Positions 3,779 to 37,834 of a stretch of DNA of 37,920 nt are shown piece by piece. This DNA is from a virus. The position numbers and the translations under genes are program-made. Each line of letters begins with the position of its first letter. Positions within the stretch are counted from its first letter, which is position 1. The notes beneath the pieces were generated by a model. The model was not told where the DNA came from. It ran no database searches and worked only from the letters and a program-made list of their open reading frames with translations. Location of the stretch: UHGV virus genome UHGV-0126763. One strand, 5' to 3'.

Positions 3779-4021
3779 TTAACCATCAACAAACTCTTCT
3801 GGTAATTTATCAACCAGTTGATGACTTATTATCAGCCATTTGCCATCCTTCGTTTCGTATGCATATTTCTGGTCTTTTATCATCATGTGTTCGGCTACTG
3901 CCCTAACTGCCTGATCGGTGACATCTTCTCTCTTTCCTACCCACATTCCTTTTTCAGTGTTTAATGTTCCTTGAAAAATACGACCGCTTAATGGGCTTGC
4001 GCCCATAGTTTTTACTCTCAT
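3779..4021 (-). CDS. Hypothetical phage early protein
   Basis: 80-aa ORF immediately downstream of N; ATG with GAGAG RBS. Confidence 0.6.
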   Translation of the reverse strand: MRVKTMGASPLSGRIFQGTLNTEKGMWVGKREDVTDQAVRAVAEHMMIKDQKYAYETKDGKWLIISHQLVDKLPEEFVDG

Positions 4022-4031
4022 GTATCAGCTC

Positions 4032-4358: not shown

Positions 4359-4556
4359 CTGGATTCTCCTGTCAGTTAGCTTTGGTGATTGGATGGCCGG
4401 CGCTGAACCCCGGCTTACTGGTTAGAGCGCCCGCACTACCAGTGACGCTGTCTTGAGGCGCAGATTGGTTACTGCTTGCCATGAGCGCTGTTTATACATT
4501 GGTCGAGCATCAGCCTGCTCATTCATCCAATCCCAAAGCCTTCTGCTTTGAATGCT

Positions 4557-4587
4557 GCCCTTCTTCAGGGCTTAATTTTTAAGAGCG
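4557..4587 (-). promoter_or_regulatory. nutL: nutL (boxA CGCTCTTA plus boxB GCCCTGAAGAAGGGC hairpin)
   Basis: Minus strand reads CGCTCTTAAAAATTAAGCCCTGAAGAAGGGC between the OL operators and N. Confidence 0.85.
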
Positions 4588-4631
4588 TCACCTTCATGGT
4601 GGTTAGTGCGTCCTGCTGATGGCTTAAAATA

Positions 4632-4712
4632 TACCTACAGGTAAAACCGTTGTCTATACCTGCAGGTAAATAAAATTGGTGTGAGAGTTTACCTGTTTGA
4701 ATTTTCAGGTAA
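4632..4712. promoter_or_regulatory. OL operator cluster (PL region)
   Basis: TACCTACAGGTA at 4632-4643, perfect palindrome TACCTGCAGGTA at 4657-4668, split half-sites TACCTG-N10-CAGGTA at 4690-4711; same motif family as the OR sites. Confidence 0.6.
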
Positions 4713-4730
4713 TTAATTTTTTGGATTGAT

Positions 4731-4754
4731 ATAAAAAAGCCCGCTTTGCGGGCT
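4731..4754 (-). terminator. Intrinsic terminator after the repressor operon
   Basis: Minus strand AGCCCGC-aaa-GCGGGCT stem-loop followed by TTTTTTAT, directly after the stop of the 4766..5062 gene. Confidence 0.7.
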
Positions 4755-4765
4755 GAAAGGAGATG

Positions 4766-5062
4766 TCAGAAGCTATTTGGATTGCTTGGCCATTGCGGCA
4801 ATTTTGATTCTACCGGGGTGTGTTTGGGTTTGAGTCCGTTTAAGTAGTCAAGACGCTCAATGGCGCATTTATACATAGCAATCTGATCTGATGACATGTC
4901 GTCATATGACATGCCTTTGAACTTCTTAATTATCGTTTCTGCCTCATGTATAAGATTCTTCTTCCTCATGAGTTCAGCTGTATGCTTAGAGCTTACAGGA
5001 GATAACTTTGCCCATATGAAGCAGATGATTACAACAGCGACTACTATGCCGGGTATAAACAT
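4766..5062 (-). CDS. Small membrane protein co-transcribed with repressor (rex-position moron)
   Basis: ORF-track frame 4766..5080 begins with TTG overlapping the cI stop; in-frame ATG at 5062 with GAGGA upstream gives MFIPGIVVAVVIICFIWAKL, a single N-terminal TM helix plus about 75-aa soluble domain. Confidence 0.6.
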   Translation of the reverse strand: MFIPGIVVAVVIICFIWAKLSPVSSKHTAELMRKKNLIHEAETIIKKFKGMSYDDMSSDQIAMYKCAIERLDYLNGLKPKHTPVESKLPQWPSNPNSF

Positions 5063-5076
5063 TTGCTGCTTTATCC

Positions 5077-5763
5077 TCAAACTTTTGGCAGATCGTCCTG
5101 GTCTACGTACCTGGTGTGTTTCACAATAGCTGAAACAAAATGCATTTTATCAACTTCTTCAACAGGAAGAGTGATTGGGCGGTGATCACTGTTTATGCTA
5201 CTAAACTGATAATCACCGTCTCTTGTTTTGTTCATGATCTTTATCATGTTGTGACCGTCTTTGGTCCTTACAAAGACTTCATCACCTGGATGTACTGGCG
5301 TATTTGGTTCAATAACAACATATTCTCCTGACTGAATCCTTGGCCACATGCTGTCACCCTTAACCTTCAGACCGTAAGCATCTTTATCGCCGCTGTAGAT
5401 GCTTAACCAACCGGATCTGAATTCAATCATATCCACTGAGCCATCAACTCCCAAAACGGCTTCACCAATTACCGGAACAAAACCCGCACGAACGTTACCC
5501 GCAAACTCAAGATGGTCCGTAGCTCCAGCTTTACCATCTGCAAGCATGTCCATCCATCCGCGTGGGAGATTAAAAGATTTTTCAATTAGTTCCATCATAT
5601 CGTCAGCAATGCGTTTTTTTCCGCTTTTTCCTTCCGGATACAGCATTCTGGAAACGTATGATGGTTCCCTTTCTATTCGACGAGCCAACTCTGAGGCCTT
5701 TCCATTACAGAATCGGTCTCTTATCTCTATCAGCCTTAGTCGTCTTTGTTCGTATTTATCCAT
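5077..5763 (-). CDS. cI: CI-like prophage repressor (HTH N-terminal domain, S24 LexA-like peptidase C-terminal domain)
   Basis: 228 aa; C-terminal GDSMWP serine motif and later Lys typical of S24 autoproteases; divergent from cro-like gene across the operator cluster; no SD before ATG, consistent with a leaderless PRM-type transcript. Confidence 0.85.
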   Translation of the reverse strand: MDKYEQRRLRLIEIRDRFCNGKASELARRIEREPSYVSRMLYPEGKSGKKRIADDMMELIEKSFNLPRGWMDMLADGKAGATDHLEFAGNVRAGFVPVIGEAVLGVDGSVDMIEFRSGWLSIYSGDKDAYGLKVKGDSMWPRIQSGEYVVIEPNTPVHPGDEVFVRTKDGHNMIKIMNKTRDGDYQFSSINSDHRPITLPVEEVDKMHFVSAIVKHTRYVDQDDLPKV

Positions 5764-5769
5764 GATTTA

Positions 5770-5797
5770 ATTCTATCTTTGATTACCTGCCGGTAAA
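5770..5797 (-). promoter_or_regulatory. Candidate PRM-like promoter for the repressor
   Basis: Minus strand TAGAAT -10 about 6 nt upstream of the cI ATG, weak TTTACC -35 overlapping the leftmost OR site; inferred by analogy to lambda PRM. Confidence 0.35.
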
Positions 5798-5835
5798 TAA
5801 CCTATGGGTATTGATTTGCTTTTTACCTACAGGTA
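5784..5835. promoter_or_regulatory. OR operator cluster (three sites)
   Basis: TACCTGCCGGTA 5784-5795, weaker AACCTATGGGTA 5799-5810, TACCTACAGGTA 5824-5835; tripartite arrangement between divergent cI and cro. Confidence 0.65.
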
Positions 5836-5839
5836 AACT
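5811..5839 (+). promoter_or_regulatory. Candidate PR promoter
   Basis: TTGATT -35 at 5811-5816, 17-nt spacer, TAAACT -10 at 5834-5839 overlapping the rightmost operator; 32 nt upstream of cro start. Confidence 0.45.
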
Positions 5840-5871
5840 CATCTTATTCAACAACGGGAAGGAGATAGCAA

Positions 5872-6102
5872 ATGGAAGAACTCCGCTTGTATCTGAACTC
5901 CCTTTCACTGGAAGAGCAGAGAGAATTTGCCACCAAGTGCGGAACTTCTATCGGCTATTTGAGGAAAGCACTTAGCCGTAATCATGAATTGGGCGCAGCA
6001 CTTTGTGTTCTGATTGAGAAGTTCAGCAATGGTGAAGTGACTCGCAAAGACCTTCATCCGGTTGATTGGGAAAGCATCTGGCCTGAATTAATGGCCGCTT
6101 AA
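5872..6102 (+). CDS. cro: Cro-like HTH regulator
   Basis: 76 aa, first gene rightward of OR, GGAG RBS 7 nt upstream. Confidence 0.65.
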   Translation: MEELRLYLNSLSLEEQREFATKCGTSIGYLRKALSRNHELGAALCVLIEKFSNGEVTRKDLHPVDWESIWPELMAA

Positions 6103-6110
6103 GTTATTAA

Positions 6111-6142
6111 CGCTCTTACACATCCCAGCCCTGAAAAAGGGC
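6111..6142 (+). promoter_or_regulatory. nutR: nutR (boxA CGCTCTTA plus boxB GCCCTGAAAAAGGGC)
   Basis: CGCTCTTA at 6111-6118 and hairpin GCCCTGAAAAAGGGC at 6128-6142, between cro and cII. Confidence 0.8.
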
Positions 6143-6218
6143 ATTACCAGAAACAAATCTCTATGGTTTTGCGTTTCTTTGCGAAGCCAACTCTATCTAA
6201 TCATTAAGGAAATTATCT

Positions 6219-6500
6219 ATGGGTACTATTGCAACTAAAAGCAAGAAAGCGGCTCGCATCGAGTCAGCCTTGCTGAACAAACTGGCACTGATGGGGCAGA
6301 AGACATTCGCTCGAGCAATGGGGGTTCCTGAATATCAGGTAAGCCGATGGAAGAATGGTTTCTTCTCGCAGGTAAGCATGATGCTGGCTGTTCTGGAATA
6401 CGGAATCGAAGACGATGAAATGGCTGAGCTGACTAAGCGGCTTGCCAATTACCTGACAAAAGAAAAAGCCCCGAAGAACGGCGAATTCTTCGAGGCCTGA
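6219..6500 (+). CDS. cII: CII-like transcriptional activator
   Basis: 93 aa; ARIESALLNK...SRWK...MLAVLE segment resembles lambda CII as recalled; AGGA RBS. Confidence 0.8.
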   Translation: MGTIATKSKKAARIESALLNKLALMGQKTFARAMGVPEYQVSRWKNGFFSQVSMMLAVLEYGIEDDEMAELTKRLANYLTKEKAPKNGEFFEA

Positions 6501-6534
6501 TGTAGAAAGACTGGATCAATCCACAGGAGTCATT

Positions 6535-6696
6535 ATGACAAAACGTCGTAAGAAATACCAGGAAAAAGAAGAGATTCGACACCCTGATTCACCTGAGGGA
6601 TTAGTGGTAGCCGCAGCAAATAACAGGGCGTTCGCAGAGCGCCTTGTTGGTGTTTACAGACTAGCCAAAGCAGGAGTGAAACATGGGCGTCGTTAA
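6535..6696 (+). CDS. Small basic hypothetical protein (53 aa), not in ORF track
   Basis: ATG at 6535 preceded by AGGAGT; hand translation [53 protein letters not shown]; stop overlaps the O-like gene start. Confidence 0.35.
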   Translation: MTKRRKKYQEKEEIRHPDSPEGLVVAAANNRAFAERLVGVYRLAKAGVKHGRR

Positions 6697-7504
6697 GTTA
6701 GCTGATTACAGGCCTCAACTGGAGGTCGTGGAGCATCGCGTGGCAGATACCGAAGATGGTTTCATGCGCGTTGCTAACGAGATTACCGACAGTCTGCTGA
6801 TGGCTGATTTAACCGTCCGGCAGTTGAAGGTGATGCTCGCTATCATGCGCAAGACATACGGATTCAATAAGCCGATGGATCGACTCACAAACACGCAGAT
6901 AGCAGCCATGACAGGTATTCATCACACTCATGTTTGCGCTGCCAAGCGCCAGCTTATTGAGCGTAAATTCCTCATTGCTGATGGCGTGAAAATCGGAGTG
7001 AACAAGGTGGTTTCGCAGTGGATTAGCCAGGACAGCTTAACATTAGCTAAAACAGCTAATAAAACATTAGCCAAGTCAGCTAATGGGTATAAGCCAAGTC
7101 AGCTAAACACAAAAGACAATATACAAAAGACAATAAATACAAATACCCCCTTACCCCCTAACGGGGGCGGCGATGGGCAGGTTAAACCTGAACGTCGCAA
7201 GGCAGAACGAATCGACTACGAATCCTTCCTGAACGCCTACAACACCGAAGTCGGTGACAGACTTCCACATGCTGTTGCGGTCAACGAGAAACGCAAACGT
7301 CGCCTGAAGAAAATCATTCCGCAACTGAAAACGCCAAACGTGGACGGTTTCAGAGCGTATGTCAGGGCGTTTGTGCATCAGGCCAAGCCGTTTTACTTCG
7401 GAGACAACGACACGGGCTGGACGGCAGATTTTGATTACCTGCTGAGGGAAGACTCGTTAACGGGAGTTCGGGAAGGGAAGTTTGCAGACAGGGGGATTGC
7501 ATGA
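6683..7504 (+). CDS. Replication initiator, O-like (P22 gene 18-like)
   Basis: 273 aa, AGGAG RBS, origin-like iterons embedded mid-gene, followed by helicase gene with ATGA overlap. Confidence 0.8.
7040..7140. repeat. Candidate replication origin: iterons plus AT-rich tract inside the O-like gene
   Basis: GCCAAGTCAGCTAA occurs twice (7070-7083, 7092-7105) with related TTAGCTAAAA/CAGCTAAT units, then A-rich tract with AAAAGACAATA twice. Confidence 0.5.
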
Positions 7505-8877
7505 GACAGGATATCGAAGCGAGCGTTATCGGTGGCCTGCTGATTGGTGGATTAACACCAACCGCCAGCGACGTTCTGGCAACGCTTGAGCCGGAAGCGT
7601 TTTCAATTCCGCTCTACCGGAAAGCCTTCGAGGTTATCCGCAAGCAGGCGCGAAACAGAAACCTAATCGACGCGCTGATGGTTGCCGAGGAGTGCGGAGA
7701 GGAGCATTTCACGTCAATCCTGATGACCAGCAAAAACTGCCCGAGTGCCGCAAACCTGAAGGGATATGCCGGAATGGTCGCGGATAACTATCACCGCCGT
7801 CTGGTGCTGGAAATCATGGATGAAATGCGTGAACCAATTCAGAGCGGAACCATCGACGCATCGAGTCAGGCGATGGATGAACTTGTAAAACGTCTCTCAG
7901 CTATCAGAAAGCCCCGTGACGAGGTTAAACCTGTACGGTTAGGGGAAATCATCACTGACTACACTGACACGCTTGACAGGCGTCTGAGGAACGGAGAAGA
8001 GTCAGATACCCTGAAGACCGGAATCGAAGAACTTGACGCCATCACCGGAGGGATGAACGCAGAAGACCTGGTGATTATCGCCGCTCGTCCTGGTATGGGG
8101 AAAACCGAGCTGGCGCTGAAGATTGCCGAAGGCGTTGCAAGCCGCGCTATTCCTGGTTCTGACGTCCGGCGCGGAGTGTTGATTTTCTCGATGGAAATGA
8201 GCGCATTGCAGATTGCAGAGCGAAGCATTGCCAACGCCGGGAGGATGTCGGTTAGCGTGCTGCGAAATCCTGCATCGATGGATGACGAAGGCTGGGCGCG
8301 TGTTGCTAACGGCATGAGTCAGCTTGCAGATTTGGATGTATGGGTAGTCGATGCCTCGCGGTTATCGGTCGAAGAAATACGCTCAATCGCAGAACGGCAC
8401 AAACAGGAAAATCCAAACCTGTCACTCATCATGGCGGATTATCTTGGCCTGATTGAGAAGCCGAAAGCAGACCGCAACGACCTCGCAATTGCTCACATCT
8501 CCGGAAGCCTGAAGGCGATGGCGAAAGACCTGAAAACGCCTGTTATCTCCCTGAGTCAGCTTTCGCGCGATGTTGAGAAGCGACCAAACAAACGCCCGAC
8601 AAACGCAGATTTGCGTGATTCAGGAAGCATTGAACAGGACGCAGACTCAATCATCATGCTCTATCGGGAAGCGGTATATGATGAGAACAGTAGCGCCGCG
8701 CCATTTGCTGAAATCATCGTGACGAAAAACCGTTTTGGCTCGCTTGGTACAGTTTACCAGCGGTTCTGTAACGGACACTTTGTTGCATGTGACCAGGATG
8801 AAGCCAGACAGATTTGCACAACATCAAATGCACCTGCTGCGCGTGGCAGACGATATGCACAAGGGGCTGACGTATGA
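7501..8877 (+). CDS. Replicative DNA helicase, DnaB family (P22 gene 12-like)
   Basis: 458 aa; Walker A GMGKTE; DnaB-like N-terminal [14 protein letters not shown]. Confidence 0.9.
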
Positions 8878-8902
8878 CCATCTACATCACTGAGCTAATA
8901 AC

Positions 8903-8934
8903 AGGCCTGCTGGTAATCGCAGGCCTTTTTATTT
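8903..8934 (+). terminator. Intrinsic terminator after replication genes (tR2-like position)
   Basis: AGGCCTGC-tggtaatc-GCAGGCCT stem-loop followed by TTTTTATTT. Confidence 0.6.
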
Positions 8935-8950
8935 GGGGGAGAGGGAAGTC

Positions 8951-9391
8951 ATGAAAAAACTAACCTTTGAAATTCGATCTCCAGCACATCAGCAAAACGC
9001 TATCCACGCAGTACAGCAAATCCTTCCAGACCCAACCAAACCAATCGTAGTAACCATTCAGGAACGCAACCGCAGCTTAGACCAAAACAGGAAGCTATGG
9101 GCCTGCTTAGGTGACGTCTCTCGTCAGGTTGAATGGCATGGTCGCTGGCTGGATGCAGAAAGCTGGAAGTGTGTGTTTACCGCAGCATTAAAGCAGCAGG
9201 ACGTTGTTCCTAACCTTGCCGGGAATGGTTTTGTGGTAATAGGCCAGTCAACCAGCAGGATGCGTGTAAGCGAATTTGCGGAGTTATTAGAGCTTATACA
9301 GGCATTCGGTACAGAGCGTGGCGTTAAGTGGTCAGACGAAGCGCGACTGGCTCTGGAGTGGAAAGCGCGATGGGGAGACCGGGCAGCATGA
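8951..9391 (+). CDS. ninB: NinB recombination protein
   Basis: Start chosen at [10 protein letters not shown] (ATG 8951, GGGAGAGGGAAG RBS) giving 146 aa, matching lambda NinB length and sequence as recalled; ORF-track start 8933 is upstream in frame. Confidence 0.8.
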
Positions 9392-23653: not shown

Positions 23654-24814
23654 ATGGCACAGGGCTTACCTGTATCCAACGTTGTAAACGTTGATGTGAT
23701 CATCTCGCCGAAAGCGGCTACTGGTCGTAACTTCGGCGCGCTGCTGATCCTCGGCTCTTCCACTGTCATTCCGGTGCAGGAACGCATTCGCCTTTATGCG
23801 TCCGTTGAGGACATTGGCGAGGACTTCGGAGTCGACAGCCCGGAATATGAAGCGGCGCAGGTTTTCTTCAGCCAGTCACCGAAGCCGACACAGGTTTATG
23901 TTGGTCGCTGGGCGAAGACGCTGAGTTCTTCCGAGAGTGGAGATACTGAAACCATCGTGCAAGCTGTTAATGCCTGCCTGCAATATACCAACTGGTATGG
24001 GCTGGTTGTCGCTGATGATGTTGTCGCTGGTGGCGATGTGCTTGATGCTGATGACGTGATTGAGGTCGCCAAACTTATTGAAGCGTCCAGCCTTAGCCGT
24101 ATCTTTGGTGTGACCTCTGCCGACGCCGAGATTATCAGCACGACTTCGACGACCGATGTTGCGTCGAAATTAAAGGCTGGCAAGTATGCCCGTACCTTTA
24201 TTCAGTATTCCACCAGCAGCCCTTACGCAGCGGTTTCTGCTTTCGGTCGTGCGTTTACTGTCAATTTCAACGGCAGCAATACCACCATTACCCTGAAGTT
24301 CAAACAGGAACCAAGCGTAACCTACGAAACGTTGACGGTAGGCCAGGCGGCTGCGGTGGATACGAAGAATGCGAACGTGTTCGTGTACTACGCCAACGAC
24401 ACGGCGATCCTGCAACAGGGTGTCATGGCGAACGGTGACTTCTTCGACGAGCGCCACGGGCTCGACTGGTTGCAGAACTACGTTCAGACCAACCTCTATA
24501 ACCTGCTTTACACCAGCACCACCAAAATTCCGCAGACTGATGCCGGTGTGACCCGTCTGCTTTCCAACGTTGAACAGTCCATGGATCAGTCCGTCACGAA
24601 CGGTCTGGTAGCGGCTGGCGTGTGGAATGGTGGACCTATCGGACAGCTGAATTCCGGCGATACGCTGACCAAAGGTTATTACGTGTATGCGCAACCTCTT
24701 TCAGAACAGGCGCAGGCCGACCGAGAAGCTCGCAAAGCACCGTTAATTCAGGTGGCCTGTAAGCTGGCTGGCGCAGTTCATTATGCCGATGTGCAGATCA
24801 ACGTGGTTCGCTAA
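23654..24814 (+). CDS. Putative tail sheath protein
   Basis: 386 aa, first large gene of tail module, followed by tube-like and chaperone genes; assignment by position and size. Confidence 0.5.
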
Positions 24815-24824
24815 GGAGCGATAA

Positions 24825-25265
24825 ATGTCAACTTATTCTTTTCTCGATGTAACCGCGTCGCTCATCGGGCCGACCGGCGTTATCGATCTTGGTCAGGGTT
24901 CTGCGAACTCTGAGGAAGGTATCACCCAGACCATGGGCGGCAACAAGAACACCATGACCATCGGTGCCGATGGCGAAGTGATGCACAGCCTGCACGCCGA
25001 TAAGTCAGGCACCATTACGGTGACGCTGCTGAAAACCTCCCCGGTGAACAAGAAGCTGTCTCTGGCGTATAACGCGCAAAGCCAGTCCTCTGCCACCTGG
25101 GGCAATAACGTGATCGTCATTCGCAACACGGCATCGGGTGATATTTCTACTGCGCGTTCGTGCGCATTCCAGAAACAGCCTGATTTCAATAACGCCAAAG
25201 AGGGCGGGACTGTTTCCTGGGTGTTCGACTGCGGCAAGATTGACCAGCTGCTCGGGGAGTTTTAA
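24825..25265 (+). CDS. Putative tail tube protein
   Basis: 146 aa, AAGGAG RBS, between sheath-like gene and chaperone. Confidence 0.5.
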   Translation: MSTYSFLDVTASLIGPTGVIDLGQGSANSEEGITQTMGGNKNTMTIGADGEVMHSLHADKSGTITVTLLKTSPVNKKLSLAYNAQSQSSATWGNNVIVIRNTASGDISTARSCAFQKQPDFNNAKEGGTVSWVFDCGKIDQLLGEF

Positions 25266-25268
25266 CGC

Positions 25269-25694
25269 ATGGAATTCGAAATTAAAGGCGTGAAATATCG
25301 CACCGCAAAGCTCAGCGTTTTCGAACAGCTGAAGGTGTCCCGCAAGCTGTTGCCGGTGCTGGCCGGGATGGTTTCTGACTTTCGGAGCGTTCAGGAGAAG
25401 ATCAGCAGCAAAGACACCGAAGGCGCGATGGCTACCATCCTGCCAAAGATTGCCAATGCTGTGTCCGATCTGAGCGATGGCGACGTGGACGCTATCCTGT
25501 TCCCCTGCCTTTCCGTTGTTTCACGCGAGCACATGAAAGGCTGGGTGCCGGTCTGCCAGCATGGCGAAATGGCGTTTGACGATATCGACCTGCTGACCAT
25601 GCTGCAACTGGTGGCGCGGGTGGTCGCCGACTCGCTGGGAAATTTTTTGCAAGGACTCCCTACCAGCGAGACGCCCACCCCGCCAGCGGAATAA
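25269..25694 (+). CDS. Tail assembly chaperone (G-like)
   Basis: 141-aa ORF directly upstream of tape measure gene; contains slippery AAATTTTTTG near its 3' end. Confidence 0.6.
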   Translation: MEFEIKGVKYRTAKLSVFEQLKVSRKLLPVLAGMVSDFRSVQEKISSKDTEGAMATILPKIANAVSDLSDGDVDAILFPCLSVVSREHMKGWVPVCQHGEMAFDDIDLLTMLQLVARVVADSLGNFLQGLPTSETPTPPAE

Positions 25695-25882
25695 CCTTCA
25701 ACAGCCTGCCGGGCGGTGAAGATTTTATTCTTCGTCCGGCGCTTGCCTTCCAGATTGACCAGAAAGACCTTAACAGCGGTGCGGTAGACCTCTGCCGCAT
25801 CGCGCTTCTCAATGACTACCTCGACATGCGCGAGGATAACGACGCCCGGGTAGATAAATGGAGAGCGGCCAATGAGCGGTAA
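25269..25882 (+). CDS. Tail assembly chaperone -1 frameshift product (GT-like)
   Basis: -1 frame is open from the slippery site at 25640-25649 to TAA at 25880-25882; extension translates as protein-like ...TFNSLPGGEDFILRPALAFQIDQKDLNSGAVDLCRIALLNDYLDMREDNDARVDKWRAANER. Confidence 0.5.
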
Positions 25883-27953
25883 CGCAGATACGATTAAAGA
25901 TTTCCTTGTTTCGCTGGGATTCGATATCGATCAGGCTGGCGCTAATAAGTTTGAAGCCGTGCTGAAAGGCGTTACCGCGAACGTTCTGAAGGTCGGCGCG
26001 GTGGTGGAAGGCGCAGCGCTGAGCATTGTCGGATTTACCACCCAGATCGCGAATGGTCTGGATAAAATTTACTGGGCATCCCAACGGACGGGGGCCAGCG
26101 TCCAGGGCATCAAAGCGCTGGGCTATGCCGCATCGCAAACCGGTGCCAGCGCTGAGTCGGCCATGTCCTCCCTCGAAGGGCTGGCTGGCTTCATGCGTAG
26201 CAATCCGGGGGCGGAAGGGTTCCTGAACCGTCTTGGTGTCCAGACCCGCGATGCCAGCGGAAAGATGCGTGATACTGCTGCCATCTTTACTGGCGTTGGG
26301 CAAAAGCTCAACAACATGCCGTATTACCGCGCGAAGCAATACGCGCAGATGCTCGGTATCGATGAAAACACGCTGATGGCGATGCGGCGCGGCATGAATG
26401 GCTTTACCGCCGATTACCAGTCTATGCTGCAAAAGACGGGGTTCAACGCTGATAAGGCAGCCGTTCAGTCCAACAAATTCATGACGTCCATGCGCGGGCT
26501 TACGTCGCTGTTCGGCATTGTGCGGGACAAGATCGGCTCAAATCTCGCTGGTGGTCTGGCTGGTTCGCTGGACAGCCTGCGGCGGCGCATCCTCGACAAT
26601 TTCCCGAAGATTGAAGAGACGCTGACCAAAGTTATTAAGGGCGTGATCTGGCTTGCAAACGCCTTCACACGAATGGCGTGGCGGCTTATACAGGGCGCTG
26701 GCTCTGTCATTGACTGGTGGAAGCGTCTTGATGATGGCAGTAAAAATCTGCTGAAAATATTCGGTGCTCTACTGGTCGCATGGCGTCTGCTTAATTCTGC
26801 GTTCCTGAAATCCCCGATTGGAATTATCACCACACTGATTCTGGCGATCGGATTGCTGTACGACGATTACCAGACGTGGAAAGAGGGCGGTAAAAGCCTG
26901 ATTGACTGGTCCAAATGGCAGCCAGAAATTGAGCAGGCAAAGAAGGTGTTCAAGTGGCTGCGCGATAAGTTTCTGGAGCTCAAGGACAACCTCGGCGGCT
27001 GGAAAAATACGCTTACCATCCTGTTTGGCTTTCTGGCCGGTGCGAAGCTGTTCTCCATGCTCACTGGTATCGGGCGACTTGTCGCCGGATTTATGGGGCT
27101 CGGTAAGGCAATTGGCGGCTCTATTGGTGGGCTGGGTAAGCTGGCGCAGGGGATCGCTCAGTTGGCAATCAAGAATCCCTGGTTGCTTATGTTCATTCCT
27201 GCCAACAATACGCCGACCACCAGTGAAGAAATGGCGTCGATTGGCGGTATAGGCAGCAATATCGTACCTGAAAGGCAGCAGGCATATGAGGCGCTGAGAA
27301 AGGAAAATCCCGGCAAAGACTTTTTCACTGATGAGCAAATCCAGCGAAAAATTCAGGAGATGGGACTGGAGCCGGAGCAGCGAGCGCAGTCGGTTAAACG
27401 CCCACAAGCCACAGCGCAGGGCAAGGTTTTGCTCGACTGGATGGGGCCATTGTTCAATAAGCTGGAGTCTCTTTATCAGCTGCCTGCTGGCCTGTTGAAA
27501 AGCGTGGCGATCACCGAGTCGGGTGGTAACCAGTTCGCTGTGTCCGGCGCAGGCGCGAAAGGACTGTTTCAGTTTATGGATGGCACGGCGCGCGACATGG
27601 GCCTGCGTGGGAATGATGTATTCGACCCGGAAAAGTCAGCTCAGGCAGCCGCTAAGTACCTCAGCCAGCTGTTGCGGCAGAACGGCGGAGACCTTAGCAA
27701 AGCACTGGCATCATATAACTGGGGGATCGGGAATGTTAAGCGTTATGGAATGGGGCTAATGCCGCAGGAAACGCGCAACTACATTCCGAAAGTAATGAGC
27801 AATATGCCCACCAGCGCCCCGGTGATTCAGCAGGAAACGAATATTAACATCCACGGTGTTTCCGATCCGCGTGAAGCTGCCCGTTTGACTGTTGACCGTC
27901 AAAAGGGCGTGAATTCACAGTTAACCCAGCAACTCCCCGCAGGACCGAGATAA
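25872..27953 (+). CDS. Tail tape measure protein with C-terminal SLT lytic transglycosylase domain
   Basis: 693 aa; central hydrophobic/Gly-rich segments; C-terminal ESGGNQFAVSGAGAKGLFQF...YNWGIGNV matches soluble lytic transglycosylase motifs. Confidence 0.8.
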   Translation: MSGNADTIKDFLVSLGFDIDQAGANKFEAVLKGVTANVLKVGAVVEGAALSIVGFTTQIANGLDKIYWASQRTGASVQGIKALGYAASQTGASAESAMSSLEGLAGFMRSNPGAEGFLNRLGVQTRDASGKMRDTAAIFTGVGQKLNNMPYYRAKQYAQMLGIDENTLMAMRRGMNGFTADYQSMLQKTGFNADKAAVQSNKFMTSMRGLTSLFGIVRDKIGSNLAGGLAGSLDSLRRRILDNFPKIEETLTKVIKGVIWLANAFTRMAWRLIQGAGSVIDWWKRLDDGSKNLLKIFGALLVAWRLLNSAFLKSPIGIITTLILAIGLLYDDYQTWKEGGKSLIDWSKWQPEIEQAKKVFKWLRDKFLELKDNLGGWKNTLTILFGFLAGAKLFSMLTGIGRLVAGFMGLGKAIGGSIGGLGKLAQGIAQLAIKNPWLLMFIPANNTPTTSEEMASIGGIGSNIVPERQQAYEALRKENPGKDFFTDEQIQRKIQEMGLEPEQRAQSVKRPQATAQGKVLLDWMGPLFNKLESLYQLPAGLLKSVAITESGGNQFAVSGAGAKGLFQFMDGTARDMGLRGNDVFDPEKSAQAAAKYLSQLLRQNGGDLSKALASYNWGIGNVKRYGMGLMPQETRNYIPKVMSNMPTSAPVIQQETNINIHGVSDPREAARLTVDRQKGVNSQLTQQLPAGPR

Positions 27954-28864: not shown

Positions 28865-29929
28865 ATGTCTCTTAACTGGATGCGCCATTTTGAGCTGCAA
28901 CTGTTGGACCAGAACGGGCAGGGCGTTTCCCTGTCTGACTTTAAGGTCACGTTCCAGATCGAGTGGGCAGACACACGCTGGCCACGCGTGGCGAACGTGA
29001 AAATTTACAACCTTTCGACCGATACCACGAACAAGATACTTGGGCAGGAGTTTGCCAAAATTCGCATCATTGCCGGGTATGACGGTATAGTGCCGGATGT
29101 TGATGCGAGCCAGGTTGGTGTGTCCCGGGAGATTTCACCAGACCAGATAGGGCAGGTGAACGGTCAGAACTACGGCCTGATTTTTGACGGTGATATTCGC
29201 TTCACCGTCACCGGGAAGGACAACATTACGGATTCCTGGGTGTTGATTCAGGCCATTGGTGATCACGAAGCGTTCCTCTATGCGACCACCATCACCACGC
29301 TTGCCGCTGGCTATACCGTTGCGGATCTGCACCGGGCGACGATGCAGGATTTCAACGCGTTCGGCGTGACACAGGGCATTACCGGCGATTTTCCTGATAC
29401 CGTGTTTCCTCGTGGCCGCGCGATTTACTCATCCAGCCGCAACGTGATGGATAATATTGCTGCGCAGTGCAAAGCGACATGGCAACTGGTGGATGGTCAG
29501 GTCCAGATGGTGCCGGAGGATAAATATATTCACGAAGCCATTGTGTTGAATGCCAATACTGGCCTGATCGGTATGCCGCAACAGACAATGGGCGGCGGCG
29601 TAAACGTGCGGTGCCTGATAAACCCAAACATCCGCATTAATGGTCTTATCCAGCTCGATCAGGCTTCGGTGTACCGCGCCGCGCTCGGCAATAGCGAAAT
29701 CGCACAGTCGCCCGGTCGTATCACTGAAACGGAAGAGAACGGCAACCGCGCACTGACCGGCACAACGTCACAGGCTGCCAGCATTGCGACAGATGGCGTT
29801 TATATCGTCAAAGCTATCGACTATACTGGCGACACCAGAGGTCAGGCGTGGTACATGGATTTGATGTGTTTTGCGCGTGGCAGTCGTGATTTAGTTAATG
29901 CTGGTGCTATGCAAAAAACAAACTACTGA
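28865..29929 (+). CDS. Putative baseplate hub / late-control D-like tail protein
   Basis: 354 aa, GGAG RBS, position between tape measure and spike gene. Confidence 0.5.
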   Translation: MSLNWMRHFELQLLDQNGQGVSLSDFKVTFQIEWADTRWPRVANVKIYNLSTDTTNKILGQEFAKIRIIAGYDGIVPDVDASQVGVSREISPDQIGQVNGQNYGLIFDGDIRFTVTGKDNITDSWVLIQAIGDHEAFLYATTITTLAAGYTVADLHRATMQDFNAFGVTQGITGDFPDTVFPRGRAIYSSSRNVMDNIAAQCKATWQLVDGQVQMVPEDKYIHEAIVLNANTGLIGMPQQTMGGGVNVRCLINPNIRINGLIQLDQASVYRAALGNSEIAQSPGRITETEENGNRALTGTTSQAASIATDGVYIVKAIDYTGDTRGQAWYMDLMCFARGSRDLVNAGAMQKTNY

Positions 29930-29939
29930 GGTACGGGAC

Positions 29940-30275
29940 GTGAAACTCGTAATTTTTATCATTGCAGCATTATTTTCTTTCCAAGCTATTGCTGATTCTC
30001 AGTGTGGTGATTTCAAAATCCATTGGGCTGATGATGGTTTCGCTCGCGTAAACGGAGCTAAACCTGAATCGCAAAAAGTGACATTTCTTAAAAATGACGG
30101 TGATTATAACAACGTCAAAATTGAATGGCGCTTAGCGACCAATCAACCAGGGCGATGGGTAGGAATGGAGTTTATTGGCCGTAATGGTAAAGCAATCCTG
30201 AATGCTCAGTGGCTGCAAGCCAGCATGGATTCGCCGCGTCAGTATGCAACATACGACTGCCGAAAAGTAAAATAG
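29940..30275 (+). CDS. Secreted small protein (Sec signal peptide), moron in tail module
   Basis: GTG at 29940 with GAGG 8 nt upstream gives MKLVIFIIAALFSFQAIA followed by DSQCGDF (AXA cleavage site); two Cys in mature part; AT-rich; ORF-track ATG at 29898 lacks the signal peptide context. Confidence 0.55.
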   Translation: MKLVIFIIAALFSFQAIADSQCGDFKIHWADDGFARVNGAKPESQKVTFLKNDGDYNNVKIEWRLATNQPGRWVGMEFIGRNGKAILNAQWLQASMDSPRQYATYDCRKVK

Positions 30276-30293
30276 CCCGCCAGATAGGCGGGC
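30275..30293. terminator. Hairpin between convergent moron genes
   Basis: GCCCGCC-agata-GGCGGGC; on the minus strand it is followed by T-rich CTATTTTACTTTT. Confidence 0.45.
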
Positions 30294-30298
30294 ATGCG

Positions 30299-30589
30299 TC
30301 AAAAATATTGAGCTTTAATTATAATAAACACAATAATTACGAACAGGATGTTTCTAATTATTTTTTGCTTATGAGTAAGTTGTTTTTTTTCTGTCGATTT
30401 CCCGGGAGAGTAAAGGTTAGTGGTATGCGACAGCCCCGTGCCGGGAAGGCCATTTGTCATCTTTACGCCTTTTTTTCCGATGTTAATGGTGGAACCTTTA
30501 CCACCAATTGAAGTGCTTACTCCGCTTTTACTAATGTTGATCGCGAGTCCGGGCGCAATCCGGATTCTTTTACGAAATCTAAATCCCAT
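30299..30589 (-). CDS. DUF4236-like protein with C-terminal membrane anchor, opposite-strand moron
   Basis: 96 aa; AGGAG RBS 6 nt upstream of ATG; N-terminal MGFRFRKRIRIAPG...SKSGVSTSIGGKG...GLPGTGLS resembles DUF4236 from memory; C-terminal hydrophobic ILFVIIVFIIIKAQYF. Confidence 0.65.
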   Translation of the reverse strand: MGFRFRKRIRIAPGLAINISKSGVSTSIGGKGSTINIGKKGVKMTNGLPGTGLSHTTNLYSPGKSTEKKQLTHKQKIIRNILFVIIVFIIIKAQYF

Positions 30590-30776
30590 TTGTTACTCCT
30601 GTAGTCAATAATGCGATGGTGCAGGTCCACTCTATGGCGGCTTCATGGCTGAAATTGATTTTCAATGCTTACTTGTTGCAAACATATCCTAATACACCTT
30701 GTGAATGTGTGCCATTGCAGCGGAAAAGCCTTACTTCACACTGATGTGGCTTAGTTACTAAGAGATAATTGATACC

Positions 30777-30800
30777 AAACCAGCTTCGGCTGGTTTTTTT
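30777..30800 (+). terminator. Intrinsic terminator preceding baseplate genes
   Basis: AAACCAGC-ttcg-GCTGGTTT followed by TTTTT, 12 nt before the baseplate spike ATG. Confidence 0.55.
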
Positions 30801-33105: not shown

Positions 33106-33782
33106 GCAAATACACCGAACTGATCACTAACTACCACGCTACCAAGCCACTCTTTTTTGACCATATAGACCTAAGCACTCGCCCGCTGATTGATGTGTCC
33201 AGGACTATGTCAGGGCTTGTAACAGCCTTCGATATCGATACGGCGGTCGGCGTGCAGCTCGACACGCTCGGGATCTGGATTGGGCGTAGTCGTATAGTCA
33301 GCCAGCCAATTAGCGGCGTTTATTTCAGCTGGGACACTGACGGCCTTGGATATGACCAGGGCGTCTGGCAGGGGCCGTATGACCCGGATTCGGGCTATAC
33401 GACGCTGAGCGATGACACCTACCGCATCATTCTGAAAGCGAAAATAGCGATCAACAACTGGGACGGCCGGAACGACTCGCTGCCGCCCATTCTTGACGAA
33501 GCGACGGCAGGCTCTGGCCTGAAGATGCAGATCGTCGACAATCAGGATATGACGATATCGGTTTGGGTATTTCCCGAGACTGACATTTCGGACGTGTCTC
33601 TCGAACTGATCGCCGCTATCAAGCAGGGCTATCTCACTGTTAAAGCTGCTGGCGTGTGGGCCGGTGATGTTGAAACGCCTTCGGTAGAAACACCGTCTGA
33701 AGGCACTAAGTTTTTTGGGTTTGATATGGATAACGAATACATCGGTGGGTTCGATGTGGGAGCATGGGGGACTTTACTCTAA
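33102..33782 (+). CDS. Tail protein (Mu gp48 / P2 I-like position)
   Basis: 226-aa ORF coupled between J-like and fiber genes. Confidence 0.5.
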   Translation: MSKYTELITNYHATKPLFFDHIDLSTRPLIDVSRTMSGLVTAFDIDTAVGVQLDTLGIWIGRSRIVSQPISGVYFSWDTDGLGYDQGVWQGPYDPDSGYTTLSDDTYRIILKAKIAINNWDGRNDSLPPILDEATAGSGLKMQIVDNQDMTISVWVFPETDISDVSLELIAAIKQGYLTVKAAGVWAGDVETPSVETPSEGTKFFGFDMDNEYIGGFDVGAWGTLL

Positions 33783-34720
33783 TGGCAACAAATAACTTTA
33801 AAGCGTTCGCGCTTGATCCTAACGCTAACGTCATGTCACAGGCTGACTGGGAAGCGCTACCGACACTACTATCAGGATTTACTTCAGGTAAGGCATCCAG
33901 TGCGCAGGTGAATAAAGCGCTTAGACAGTCGTTGTTTATTGCTTCTGCCTTGGCTGAATTTGTATCAACGACACTGAATACAGATATCCTTGATGATGGT
34001 GATATCAATGGGTTCATGAGTAAATTGACATCTGCATTACAGTTAAATTCTCCAGGGCGTCTCATTAATATTCAGACTATCACTACTTCAGGAACGTACA
34101 CAAAAACACCTGGTGCGAAGCATGCTTTAATTCGTGCAGTAGGAGGGGGGGCAGGTGGTGGCGGGGTTCCTGCCACTTCATCAACGACTCAGTCAACAGC
34201 AAAAGGTGGGGAATCTGGCGCTTATATTGAAGCGTATGTTGATCTAAGTTCTGTGACTTCTTTATCTGCAATTATTGGTGCTGGTGGAGCTGGAGCCATT
34301 GCTGGCAGCAATAGCGGGACATCTGGCGGAACGACTTCCTTAGGGAGTCTAATTTCATGTCCAGGTGGTGAGCCTGGAATTGGTGGGAATACCAGCGCAG
34401 CAAGTTTTGTATCATCTGACAGGGCATCAAATAAAGCGCCAATGTCAACAGGTAGGGTTTTGGTTTCAACGCCAACATCGTTACCAAACCTTGCCCGCGT
34501 AGCAAATCCATCAGCTCCTACTGTTGGTGGTACCGGTGGATCTAATCCTTTAGGGATTGGGGGGGCTGCTGGAGGCGCCTTACCAGGAACTCCAACAAAT
34601 CCCACCAATGCAACCGGGTATGGTAGCGGAGGTGGAGGAGGTGCATCTGTGGGCGGCAACGCTGCAATGGGAGGAGCCAACGGAGCACCTGGGGTTATTA
34701 TTATTATGGAGTATGCCTGA
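33782..34720 (+). CDS. Tail fiber protein with glycine-rich C-terminal region
   Basis: Start at MATNNFKAFA (TAATG overlap); N-terminal region resembles conserved side-tail-fiber N-domains; C-terminal half Gly/Ser/Thr-rich. Confidence 0.7.
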   Translation: MATNNFKAFALDPNANVMSQADWEALPTLLSGFTSGKASSAQVNKALRQSLFIASALAEFVSTTLNTDILDDGDINGFMSKLTSALQLNSPGRLINIQTITTSGTYTKTPGAKHALIRAVGGGAGGGGVPATSSTTQSTAKGGESGAYIEAYVDLSSVTSLSAIIGAGGAGAIAGSNSGTSGGTTSLGSLISCPGGEPGIGGNTSAASFVSSDRASNKAPMSTGRVLVSTPTSLPNLARVANPSAPTVGGTGGSNPLGIGGAAGGALPGTPTNPTNATGYGSGGGGGASVGGNAAMGGANGAPGVIIIMEYA

Positions 34721-35118
34721 TGAAATGTGCATTAATAAAAAGCAATCAAGTAATAAATATTATTGAAATAGATGAGGAAGGGATTAATGAATTCACAGGT
34801 GGTCAATTAATTTTAATTCCTGAGGGTGAGGTTGTAGATATTGGGTTTTCGGTTGATGGTGATGCTTTTATACCTCCGCCAATATCTGAGTTGACTGATG
34901 ATGAAATAAAGCAACTGAACGAGTCGAAAAGAAAAGAGAAGGTGGCTATTGCGGTTAATTACATATCGCAAAACTCATTGGATTCTAAACTAATGCTTGG
35001 AATGCTTTCTGATGAAGATAAACGCAAATATGCTCAAATTATTACTTACATAGATGATTTGAATTCAATGACATTGGGTTCCTTTTCAGATGTGACTTGG
35101 CCTAAGCAACCGTTTTAA
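34720..35118 (+). CDS. Putative tail fiber assembly chaperone
   Basis: 132 aa, ATGA overlap with fiber stop, GGAG RBS, AT-rich, C-terminal ...DVTWPKQPF. Confidence 0.5.
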   Translation: MKCALIKSNQVINIIEIDEEGINEFTGGQLILIPEGEVVDIGFSVDGDAFIPPPISELTDDEIKQLNESKRKEKVAIAVNYISQNSLDSKLMLGMLSDEDKRKYAQIITYIDDLNSMTLGSFSDVTWPKQPF

Positions 35119-35123
35119 CTAAT

Positions 35124-35149
35124 TGCGCACGGATAGAATTCCGTGCGCA
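35124..35149. terminator. Hairpin between convergent tfa and acyltransferase genes
   Basis: TGCGCACGG-atagaatt-CCGTGCGCA, 9-bp perfect stem; flanking U-tracts weak. Confidence 0.4.
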
Positions 35150-35156
35150 GTGGAAA

Positions 35157-36200
35157 TTACCCTGTAAATATGCTAAGGAATGTTTTTTGAAATGATTTGT
35201 TTTTATTTTTAGCGTTAATTAATGCTACTATACTAACTTGCAGTTTTACCATTATTGTAGCAAGTGTGTAAGTAAGTACATAACTTATTAAATAATGACT
35301 ACCTATTTTTTGACACATTATGATAAATGGGATGTGCCATAAATAAATCCAAATGGAGTTTTGGGATATGAATGAAACAACCTGCCATAATCTTAAAACC
35401 TTAAGTAAAAGAACAGCTTTGTTTGAGAGCAGATAGACTACGAATATCATAAAGGTTGCATAGGACATGTAATATATCCCAGGTGGGTACTTGTCTGACT
35501 GAGTTGGATTAAAGGCACCCAAGGTAATAATGTAATATGCAGTCATGGCAGAAAATAATAATCCACAGATAATGGTTGGGGGTAATAATTCTTTATGATC
35601 AGTGCTTGCAATTTTATAACCAATGATGAAAGCAAGTGTATAAGATATAGAGTTTGATATGTATGTCCCCAAAAGTATATAAATGCTCAACTTGTCAATT
35701 CCATTATACAATGGAATTAACTGGCTATTAATTAATAAAAATGACGCGGATATTGTTAATATCGCTTTTAAATTAAGTGTGTATAGTTTTGGAGGAATGA
35801 AAGTGGCTATCACTGATATTATGAAAAAGAGTCTAATAACCCACACATAACCAAGCCCACTGGATAATGCGAATGATGTTATTATAATTGACTTATTGTA
35901 AGTAAAGTCTTTTATATTAAAAATAAACGAAATGATTTCATTTATTAAGAAAAATGCCGCGAAGAAAATCCAAGTTGGTAAAACTAAACGGCGAAATCGA
36001 GAATTAATATATTTTATTCTGTTGCTATGGCGATGTTCGGTTACACAAAAGGACATCCCCATAACCATAAACATTAAAGGAACATCAAAGTTTCGCAGTT
36101 GAGCTAGCCATAAAGGAGGCTGGACATGGGCTAGAATGATTAGAGAAAGCCCGAGAAATCTTAAAAAATCTATTTTATCAATACGCATGACTTCGTCCAT
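35157..36200 (-). CDS. Acyltransferase family 3 integral membrane protein (putative O-antigen acetyltransferase)
   Basis: 347 aa, about 10 predicted TM segments, N-terminal IDFLRFLGLSLIILAHV motif typical of acyltransferase-3 (OafA/Oac-like); strongly AT-rich; sits between tail fiber genes and integrase. Confidence 0.8.
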   Translation of the reverse strand: MDEVMRIDKIDFLRFLGLSLIILAHVQPPLWLAQLRNFDVPLMFMVMGMSFCVTEHRHSNRIKYINSRFRRLVLPTWIFFAAFFLINEIISFIFNIKDFTYNKSIIITSFALSSGLGYVWVIRLFFIISVIATFIPPKLYTLNLKAILTISASFLLINSQLIPLYNGIDKLSIYILLGTYISNSISYTLAFIIGYKIASTDHKELLPPTIICGLLFSAMTAYYIITLGAFNPTQSDKYPPGIYYMSYATFMIFVVYLLSNKAVLLLKVLRLWQVVSFISQNSIWIYLWHIPFIIMCQKIGSHYLISYVLTYTLATIMVKLQVSIVALINAKNKNKSFQKTFLSIFTG

Positions 36201-36676
36201 TAGATTTTATAGATCAACGATTATACATTAGTATTGATCGGCTATGACACCATTGCTTATAGGTATGCTCTCTGTTGTATGAGTACAGCTCAGGAGCTTC
36301 GCCTTGGTTTGTTATAGCTTACGGTGCCGATTTACGATGTCGGAGTGCCGACACCGTATCGCAAATTCCCGGTAGGCAGTGGTTAGACACGATGCAGGCC
36401 GCCGGTGATTGTTGAGACTGGCAGCCTGCATAATTTACAGCCCAACCTGGCGAACTGTCGGGAACTCAGATACCAGCCACATATCGGCTTCTTCAAACAT
36501 ATCCTCGTTTCTGGTCAAGTGAGGAGTGAAAATTCATGTGCCATTTTTGTGTCACACAAGGTGAAGCATCTAACATTGTCTTGCATCATGTGCCATTAAG
36601 TTTCTTATAGTGAATGCGGCAATGTGTATGTAAAACAGCTAGTTAAATGTGATTCTACTAATTCGTAATGCGAAGG
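36201..36676. other. Candidate attP-containing intergenic region
   Basis: 476-bp non-coding gap between moron and int; 12-bp direct repeat TCATGTGCCATT at 36534-36545 and 36586-36597; core not identified. Confidence 0.3.
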
Positions 36677-37834
36677 TCATGTGACGTTACCGTCTATCCA
36701 GTCCGCCCACCATTGCATCATTTCTCTGCGCTTATCGAGATACTGAGCATGATTGTAAATTCCACGCACAGATCCGCCGTTGGCATGTGCCAGTTGCACT
36801 TCAATGGCGTCGGCAGGCCATTCGTGCTCGTTCATAATCGTGCTGAATTCATGCCTGAATCCGTGACCGCTTTCCAGACCTTCATAGCCGATTTGTTTGA
36901 TCACAAGCAATACCGCGTTCTCGCAGATTGGCTTCTTCTTATCGTTGCGCCCGGCAAAAACAAACTCTGAGACTGGTTTAGTGATGGAGCTTAGCGTAGT
37001 GAGAAGCTCAACCACCTGGTCTGACATAGGAACAACATGAATTTTGCGTCCCTTCATCACATTGGCGTCGATGGTGATAATCCTGTTTTCAAAATCGACG
37101 TTCTTCCATAGCATGGAACGAAGCTCTTTTGTTCTGAGGGCTGTGTAGCGTAAAACTTTGGTCGCAATGAGCGATACGATACTTCCTGAAAATGTTGCAA
37201 GTGCTTTGTTGAATTCCGGGATCTGGTCTGCAGGAAGAAACGGGAAGTTCTTCTTGCGGTATCCCTTCATGGCGTCAGCAAGGTCAGGTGACGGGTTATA
37301 TTTAGCCCTTCCGGTGACAATAGCGTAACGGAAAACCTCGCCGCATCTTCTGCGTGCTTTGTTGGCTCGCTCCATTGCGCCGCGATCTTCAAATCTGCGG
37401 ATTACTTCCAGCAGTTTCATCGGCTCAATATCCTGAATTTCAAGGCCGCCGATGATAGGTAAAATGTCGTCATCAAACATCTTTGCAAGTTCATTTGCAT
37501 AGCCTACTGACCAGACTTGCTTCTTGTGCTCGTACCATTCCTTGTAAATGGCGCTAAAGGAATTGTTGTTAGACGAAGCCTTTTTCGCCTTTACCGGATC
37601 GATGCCAACCGAGATGTCTTTCCTCGCAGTCCATGCTTTATCCCTTGCCTCCTGCAAAGTCATAAGCGGATATTTTCCTACGGTCAGTATTTTTTCCTTA
37701 CCGTCAATCTTGTAGCGAAGCTGCCATACCTTTTTCCCGGATACAGGGACATAAAGGTACAGGCCATTACCATCGAGAAGGCGATATGGTTTTTCTTTCG
37801 GCTTTGCTGCTTCAATCTGCTTAACGGTGAGCAT
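36677..37834 (-). CDS. int: Tyrosine integrase (P4-like family)
   Basis: N-terminus MLTVKQIEAAKPKEKPYRLLDGNGLYLYV typical of this family; C-terminal catalytic region with RHEFST and HANGGSVRGIY; ORF-track start 37870 is an upstream GTG. Confidence 0.85.
   Translation of the reverse strand: MLTVKQIEAAKPKEKPYRLLDGNGLYLYVPVSGKKVWQLRYKIDGKEKILTVGKYPLMTLQEARDKAWTARKDISVGIDPVKAKKASSNNNSFSAIYKEWYEHKKQVWSVGYANELAKMFDDDILPIIGGLEIQDIEPMKLLEVIRRFEDRGAMERANKARRRCGEVFRYAIVTGRAKYNPSPDLADAMKGYRKKNFPFLPADQIPEFNKALATFSGSIVSLIATKVLRYTALRTKELRSMLWKNVDFENRIITIDANVMKGRKIHVVPMSDQVVELLTTLSSITKPVSEFVFAGRNDKKKPICENAVLLVIKQIGYEGLESGHGFRHEFSTIMNEHEWPADAIEVQLAHANGGSVRGIYNHAQYLDKRREMMQWWADWIDGNVT

Follow-up and report, generated by a model that had tools for sequence, protein, structure and literature searches.

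A stand-alone acyltransferase-3 gene as prophage cargo between tail fibre and integrase, with O-antigen acetylation as its probable function

The virus genome UHGV-0126763 carries a single minus-strand gene for a membrane protein between its tail-fibre genes and its integrase gene. This locus raises the question of whether the gene is a lysogenic conversion gene and, if so, which polysaccharide of the host envelope its product modifies. The window, i.e. the whole stretch of 37,920 nucleotides that was analysed, represents a temperate E. coli phage. Lambdoid early genes (Ead/Ea22, RecT, an N-type antiterminator and an S24 repressor) lie on the minus strand at its left end, and the late genes are of the contractile-tail type, with kin in Citrobacter phage Omnitron (92.8% identity), several vB_EcoM coliphages and Salmonella phage SEN34 (Brunovirus). 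Omnitron is the deposited phage with the closest backbone. The backbone match to Omnitron and SEN34 stops at 33922-33954, inside the tail-fibre gene (~33920-33950), and the whole stretch from this point to the integrase is variable cargo. GC contents over 35001-36000 are 0.33 and 0.31, the most AT-rich part of the window, versus 0.53-0.58 in the late and structural genes, in agreement with the original prediction, which had placed the gene in strongly AT-rich DNA. No tRNA genes were found in the window, and an Rfam scan of the whole window returned no RNA element, and hence none in the acyltransferase cassette. The features of the region are listed in Table 1.

Table 1. Features of the cargo region, in window coordinates
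Feature	Position	Strand	Basis
Tail-fibre gene, glycine-rich C-terminal domain	33764..34720	+	phrog_863, phrog_11303, PF21722
Tail-fibre assembly gene tfa, convergent with the acyltransferase gene	34720..35118	+	PF02413 Caudo_TAP, 42 bits; phrog_188
Allele-specific block: most of tfa, hairpin, acyltransferase gene from about codon 40-80 to its end	34776..35950		blastn breakpoints
GC-rich 10-bp hairpin between the convergent tfa and acyltransferase stop codons	35124..35149		RNA fold
AT3-only membrane acyltransferase CDS, 343 aa	35157..36188	-	ORF; PF01757, 78.2 bits
5' leader with putative own promoter	36189..36299	-	TATAAT at 36225-36220, weak -35
dinI remnant, last 23 codons and stop, 5' part missing	36435..36506	-	Read from sequence
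IntS-type tyrosine integrase, 385 aa from M13 of the longest ORF	36677..37834	-	Pfam Phage_integrase and Arm-DNA-bind_3

In the six-frame ORF list, the longest reading frame of the acyltransferase gene is 35157..36200 (minus strand, 347 aa), which begins at an in-frame upstream ATG at 36200. An ORF of this length in stop-rich, AT-rich DNA is no chance event. Translation probably begins at the second ATG, at 36188, because the homologues begin with MRxxKID and the first ATG is not conserved: an identical database protein (P0001) and nearly all homologues start with MR(I/D/N)xKID, and the ATG at 36200 is not conserved in the homologues linked to gtr genes. At the other end, the original prediction had set the left boundary at 35124, a position 33 nt beyond the ORF, where a hairpin has its edge. 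This hairpin occupies the 38-nt gap between the two stop codons, folds as RNA with -20.7 and -22.2 kcal/mol on the two strands (z = -3.4 and -3.7, respectively) and is not followed by a U-tract. It is possibly a bidirectional terminator, and in Shigella phage Sf6 a putative terminator is annotated in the corresponding position, after the convergent stop codons.

We assigned the protein to the acyltransferase-3 (AT3) family by its Pfam match, its motifs and its predicted fold. Acyl_transf_3 (PF01757) was the sole Pfam domain found and matched residues 8-316 at model positions 2-318 of 326 (E = 7.9e-22), with a score well above the gathering score of 31, so that the HMM search proposed as a check gave a positive answer. 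The motifs R-X10-H, with Arg14 and His25 essential in OafA and OafB, and RXXR have been defined for AT3 proteins (PMC7448272, PMC9833829). The window protein contains both, as R14-X10-H25 in TMH1 (R/K-X10-H in general form) and as R68-F-R-R71 at the cytoplasmic face of TMH3. In an alignment of 32 sequences with 31-75% identity, R14, H25, R68 and R71 were invariant, and all of the 35 invariant columns of this alignment are matched by the window protein. N37, D39, K237, Y238 and H289, which face the periplasm, are further invariant residues. A third motif, FFXISG in TMH2, has its F and G invariant across 31 aligned AT3 sequences (PMC7448272); at this position, the window protein retains the glycine (G48, at least 90% conserved), the first F is replaced by M43, and the consensus of the subfamily is LMVLVSG.

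The AF2 model (pLDDT 93.4, pTM 0.91) predicted about 10 long helices, consistent with the polytopic 347-aa membrane protein with an AT3 motif that had been proposed for the minus strand. The only meaningful PDB matches to this model were cryo-EM structures of acetyl-CoA-bound HGSNAT of the TmAT superfamily (8vlg and related entries; probability 1.0, TM ~0.5), a human lysosomal N-acetyltransferase that is larger and has 10-14% sequence identity to the window protein. HGSNAT moves an acetyl group from acetyl-CoA across the membrane. It is placed in one fold superfamily with AT3 proteins (PMC12423673). The BFVD viral fold search gave a single, uninformative match to an unnamed 637-aa protein. No NCBIfam model matched the acyltransferase, and PADLOC found no anti-phage defence match for it. 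The RefSeq annotation already names the protein an acyltransferase, and the more distant of its 841 homologues (E <= 0.001) carry automatic labels such as 'fucose 4-O-acetylase-like'.

OafA and OafB also have an AT3 domain with R14-X10-H25 and RXXR at residue numbers nearly equal to those of the window protein. However, they possess an 11th TMH and a periplasmic SGNH domain, and both Pfam and the AF2 model indicated that these two elements are absent from the window protein, which stops at residue 343 (347 from the first ATG), after TMH10 and a short helix. The protein is therefore AT3-only and not OafA-type, and either the AT3 domain alone or an unlinked partner must carry out the transfer to the acceptor. 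Architecturally, the protein is like Oac and WecH and unlike OafA, OafB or OatA. By analogy with the AT3 mechanism, acetyl-CoA would enter the pore from the cytoplasmic side and be held by R14, R68 and R71, and the acyl group, presumed to be acetyl, would be presented near H25 at the periplasmic face. From there it would pass to a hydroxyl group on a sugar of an envelope polysaccharide, with the O-antigen repeat unit as the most likely acceptor.

The position of the gene was compared with that of known cargo genes. The slot between tail-fibre genes and an IntS-type integrase holds oac in Sf6 and yfdG/H/I in the CPS-53 prophage of E. coli K-12, and the corresponding place holds an O-acetyltransferase gene in SEN34, which supports the earlier view of a classic cargo location. 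The window integrase shares 97% identity with Sf6 Int and 98% with K-12 IntS, which belongs to the cryptic prophage CPS-53 adjoining argW. The gene order in CPS-53 is argW, intS, yfdG, yfdH, yfdI and then tail-fibre assembly genes; thus a 98% identical integrase borders the same slot as in the window, but the slot is filled with gtr-type genes, annotated as bactoprenol-glucose translocase, bactoprenol glucosyl transferase and serotype-specific glucosyl transferase, respectively. A tblastn search of the window with gtrA, gtrB and gtrC of a prophage locus (L015) gave no match. The cassette therefore consists of a single gene without gtrA/gtrB partners, as had been claimed, and its chemistry is acylation, not glucosylation.

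In Sf6, the layout is identical: a tail gene on the plus strand is followed by the acyltransferase gene and the IntS-type integrase gene, both on the minus strand. Unlike Sf6, the window has a dinI remnant separating the acyltransferase gene from int. The remnant matches, with 100% identity, the C-terminal end of the complete 88-aa DinI encoded in E. coli FACU 2024 (L001), where the intact dinI follows the same acyltransferase gene; the homology to this locus ends at 36506. The gene had been predicted to lie between the tail-fibre genes and an att/int region. The tail-fibre and integrase flanks were confirmed, but the att part was not. Homology with Sf6 continues right up to the window's final base. 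As the attP core of Sf6 is found 161 bp upstream of its int gene, the att core here should be located upstream of int, ~75 nt past the window end; an att site between the acyltransferase gene and int was rejected on the same homology.

SEN34 has a related backbone and a similar layout, with tail fibre, tfa, a minus-strand AT3 gene, an 88-aa minus-strand gene and int. A small ORF sits between its O-acetyltransferase gene and the 88-aa gene, and the latter has no Pfam match. However, the SEN34 integrase is of another type and on the opposite strand, and the AT3 protein gp29 is a non-orthologous occupant of the slot. The literature on SEN34 and Brunovirus does not mention the acetyltransferase. 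In Omnitron, an acyltransferase gene after the tail fibre was excluded, because the ORFs there are all 236 aa or shorter and the tblastn search of the phage collection described below found no relative.

The original prediction had further called the enzyme Oac/OafA-type and proposed a comparison with Sf6 Oac. Oac is likewise a stand-alone AT3 protein of about 333-343 aa, with a PF01757 score of 87.6 bits compared to 78.2 bits for the window protein. Both BLAST and hhalign placed the two proteins in register, with R-X10-H aligned, R73, R75 and R76 of Oac corresponding to R68, R70 and R71, and G53 to G48. However, the pairwise similarity was not significant (BLASTP E = 0.6 against Sf6 Oac, and E = 1.4 against SEN34 gp29). 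The profile phrog_3333 matched Oac with 230 bits and gp29 with 226 bits, as opposed to 17 bits (E = 0.004) for the window protein, and the homologues P0005 and P0009 had no PHROG match at all. Orthology with Oac or gp29 was thus rejected; the likeness is at the superfamily level only, the window protein belongs to another subfamily than Oac, and the Oac/OafA-type label does not hold, also in view of the SGNH domain of OafA and OafB. A tblastn search of 50,697 deposited phage genomes (E <= 1e-3) found no relative of the acyltransferase, and no experimentally characterised close relative was found. Judged by these comparisons, the protein is a member of an uncharacterised AT3 subfamily that strongly matches no PHROG and has no relative in the deposited phage genomes.

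Although phages in this deposited set lack the subfamily, it is carried by prophages and related elements. The identical protein occurs in E. coli prophages with the same backbone, one of which (L004) is bordered by genes of the Pfam families of dacD, sbmC and yeeA, and also in L001, an IS1-truncated remnant adjoining a CP4-type island. A 57% identical protein, P0005, comes after a yfdC-like gene and an integrase in L007, an arrangement with the geometry of the window, and also adjoins the bio operon (L008) and a CP4-type island (L009). P0004 (58% identical) is IS-flanked in Enterobacter and in one case lies in an island beside smpB. P0009 (44% identical) is found directly after int, gtrA, gtrB and gtrC (DUF6056-type) in four loci (L015-L018). 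In IMG/VR, 16 loci with relatives were found, and the more distant relatives in these prophages have tail fibres, tailspikes and integrases as neighbours. Genomes carrying alleles of the gene include GCA_011601065.1 and NZ_CP147009.1. In two loci (L022 and L023), the convergent neighbour is a tailspike of 791-792 aa that scores 609-617 bits on phrog_21878. Pfam identified G7C gp63 domain 3 and a G7C galactose-binding-like domain in the L022 copy, and a GDSL esterase match in it was weak and below the cut-off. G7C gp63.1 is a known O-antigen deacetylase (PMC10743462).

We consider it probable that the gene is prophage cargo encoding an AT3-only transmembrane acyltransferase that acetylates the O-antigen in the lysogen, bringing about lysogenic conversion and superinfection exclusion; O-antigen acetylation is the most likely reading, and it is drawn from the genomic context. 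The modification would alter the cell surface and its phage-receptor properties, so that the serotype would be changed and O-antigen-dependent phages would be blocked. The evidence that counts for this explanation is the family and fold, the position in the slot, the contexts of the relatives (gtrABC, receptor-binding genes, the tailspike and the Brenneria cluster described below) and the dN/dS values. The superfamily-level likeness to Oac and gp29, the identity of the best characterised match, the uninformative chromosomal contexts, M43 and the weak promoter count against it.

The same chemistry could also be directed at another envelope glycan, such as the enterobacterial common antigen (ECA), LPS core, capsule, colanic acid or periplasmic glucans. 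This would still be lysogenic conversion, without serotype conversion of the O-antigen, and we regard it as possible, though rather unlikely. Examples of AT3-only proteins exist for ECA, periplasmic glucans and Nod factors (PMC9558356). In the profile comparisons made with characterised AT3 proteins, the best match was WecH (E = 6e-4 over 259 columns, 23% identity), followed by Oac (E = 0.03) and OpgC (E = 0.055). WecH is the ECA O-acetyltransferase of E. coli and has the size and AT3-only architecture of the window protein, but it is encoded by a chromosomal housekeeping gene as opposed to phage cargo. The WecH match is weak, with an hhalign probability of 28%, and that of OpgC is worse. Four distant chromosomal homologues were examined. 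The one from Brenneria adjoins a cluster with ugd, a Wzx-type flippase and a glycosyltransferase, and the other three, from Methylophilus, Cellvibrio and Vibrio, stand alone in uninformative contexts. The widespread stand-alone occurrence of the family in these three genera would suit a conserved acceptor. However, the phage contexts, in which the gene follows gtrABC or lies beside receptor-binding proteins including the G7C gp63.1-like tailspike, favour the O-antigen.

Comparison of the alleles showed that the acyltransferase gene, as read from its nucleotide sequence, is a recombinant mosaic. Relative to L007, L011 and L019, identity is 95-100% across the 100-300 bp upstream and the first 120-240 nt of the gene, and 55-75% in the remainder (60-nt bins). 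Codons 1-60 show a proportion of synonymous differences of 0.05-0.27, compared with a saturated 0.78-0.83 in the codons beyond them; constraint at the protein level cannot account for this contrast. The allele-specific block is common to L001, L004 and L005, and a divergent allele is present instead in L007-L010. Among the E. coli phages, the swapped block takes in most of tfa, from 34776 onward, and the tail-fibre gene itself is 96% identical. A sharp breakpoint at 35815, suggested by blastn, was rejected by the 60-nt bins and the synonymous-site analysis: as the high-identity 5' segment is only ~120-240 nt long, 35815 is where the local alignment gives out.

These patterns allow a further, tentative reading, to which we give about the same modest weight as to an acceptor other than the O-antigen. 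The gene would belong to a distinct phage-borne lineage of surface-glycan acyltransferases that diversifies by swaps of the gene body, with or without tfa, into alleles with different acetylation patterns, sometimes paired with an esterase tailspike. The promoter and the first 40-80 codons appear to stay constant while the gene body swaps. The alleles, 57-75% identical at the protein level, may differ in the acetylation pattern they create and in the sugar that accepts it. In some prophages, the enzyme may be combined with an O-acetyl-esterase tailspike, so that the phage may both write and read the O-acetyl mark.

O-antigen modification in the lysogen presupposes that the gene is active there, and it is probably expressed from an AT-rich promoter of its own. 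The putative promoter, upstream of the gene, has a perfect TATAAT and a poor -35 element. About 100 bp of the upstream region accompany the gene into unrelated IS-flanked contexts in Enterobacter with 86.5% identity, and this joint movement of the gene and the region with the TATAAT fits a gene having its own promoter. However, a consensus promoter scan did not list the TATAAT site and found no strong sigma-70 promoter. GATC sites at 36239-36236 and 36215-36212 flank the TATAAT on both sides. The second is absent from the Enterobacter copies, and the region upstream of the gtr-linked homologues is unrelated; no OxyR-like half-sites were seen on inspection upstream of the gene. Control by a Dam/GATC phase-variation switch, of the kind found in gtr and oafB, was considered and set aside because its support was too thin.

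The gene might instead be hitch-hiking or silent cargo with no phenotype, being either an AT-rich gene silenced by H-NS or one residing in a host that lacks the acceptor sugar. The GC content of 31-33% and the outcome of the promoter scan are in line with such silence. Furthermore, the allele is rare, being intact in 1 of 5,426 complete E. coli genomes, where it lies inside a prophage remnant truncated by IS1 (there is also a truncated second copy), and the adjacent dinI is itself a remnant. Nevertheless, we regard this explanation as improbable. The ORF is intact in all full-length copies examined, across several integration contexts, the 35 family-invariant residues are all preserved, and the upstream 100 bp are kept even in the IS-flanked Enterobacter copies. 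The dN/dS between alleles is 0.13-0.22 (for example, dS of 0.169 and dN of 0.032 between L011 and L019), and the gene family has thus been kept by purifying selection. Finally, a non-carbohydrate or small-molecule substrate, or a non-acetyl donor such as succinyl-CoA, is very improbable: AT3 includes macrolide acyltransferases and the succinyl-transferring OpgC (PMC9558356, PMC9833829), but no biosynthetic cluster lies nearby, the likeness to OpgC is negligible, and the gene consistently adjoins phage receptor-binding proteins.

AT3 genes as phage cargo in this slot are a textbook phenomenon that will not surprise a specialist. What is new is modest: the occupant of the slot comes from an uncharacterised AT3 subfamily, is a recombinant allele, and has relatives paired with gtr clusters or with a G7C gp63.1-like tailspike. 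The subfamily is missing from phage protein catalogues, and LPS chemistry on one member would provide an annotation for hundreds of homologues. Should the O-antigen indeed be acetylated by the gene product, a lysogen would no longer match its parent strain in serology, in its susceptibility to O-antigen-dependent phages and, possibly, in its recognition by the immune system, and this would be relevant to E. coli serotyping, to host range in phage therapy and to O-antigen vaccines.

Several small elements flank the acyltransferase gene, and another cargo gene is carried in the tail region (listed in the table below). The hairpin is stable, with a folding energy of about -21 kcal/mol and a z of about -3.5. 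Neither strand carries a U-tract at this site, and the hairpin may therefore act as a bidirectional terminator or as an RNA-stability element. At the pair of GATC sites, the second one is gone from the Enterobacter copies of the region upstream of the acyltransferase, which leaves a phase switch driven by methylation unsupported; such a switch may be possible in the E. coli copies.

Small features and cargo of the window
Feature	Position	Strand	Description
DUF4236 gene	30299-30589	opposite strand	Occupant of the second cargo slot
GC-rich hairpin, 10 bp	35124-35149		Fits precisely between the stop codons of two convergent genes, tfa and the acyltransferase
Two GATC (Dam) sites	36212-36239	-	Around a perfect TATAAT, upstream of the acyltransferase
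dinI remnant	36435-36506	-	Last 23 codons and stop

In E. coli FACU 2024 the same acyltransferase is followed by an intact DinI, to which the dinI remnant is 100% identical. In the remnant, the 3' flank of the IntS-type integrase takes the place of the missing 5' part; this arrangement suggests that recombination swapped in the integrase module.

A second variable cargo slot (about 29900-30800, GC 0.43) was observed within the tail and baseplate module. In the same slot, two related prophages carry a Fic protein with a Phd-type antitoxin (L008) and an unrelated 296-aa ORF (L007), respectively.

Among deposited phages, Omnitron of Citrobacter has the closest backbone, and no acyltransferase follows its tail fibre. 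A second ORF pair of 200 and 161 aa in the opposite orientation occupies its place (about 23856-26038) and could be an invertible tail-fibre segment.

The 58%-identical allele was found outside phages in Enterobacter (L011-L014) together with roughly 100 bp of its upstream region and with IS fragments on the flanks, in one case in an island adjoining smpB. This shows that the single acyltransferase gene is also mobile as an independent unit. In one group of prophages (L015-L018, about 2900-9035), a yfdC-like gene is followed by int, gtrA, gtrB, gtrC (DUF6056-type) and then an AT3 gene of the same subfamily as the acyltransferase of the window (44% identity); this cargo looks like combined glucosylation and acylation. 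In two IMG/VR prophages, homologues with 40-44% identity are convergent with a tailspike gene of ~790 aa (L022, 2433-4811; L023, 4459-6834), whose product resembles the O-antigen deacetylase G7C gp63.1. This pairing would put an O-acetyl "writer" and an O-acetyl "eraser and reader" into one temperate phage.
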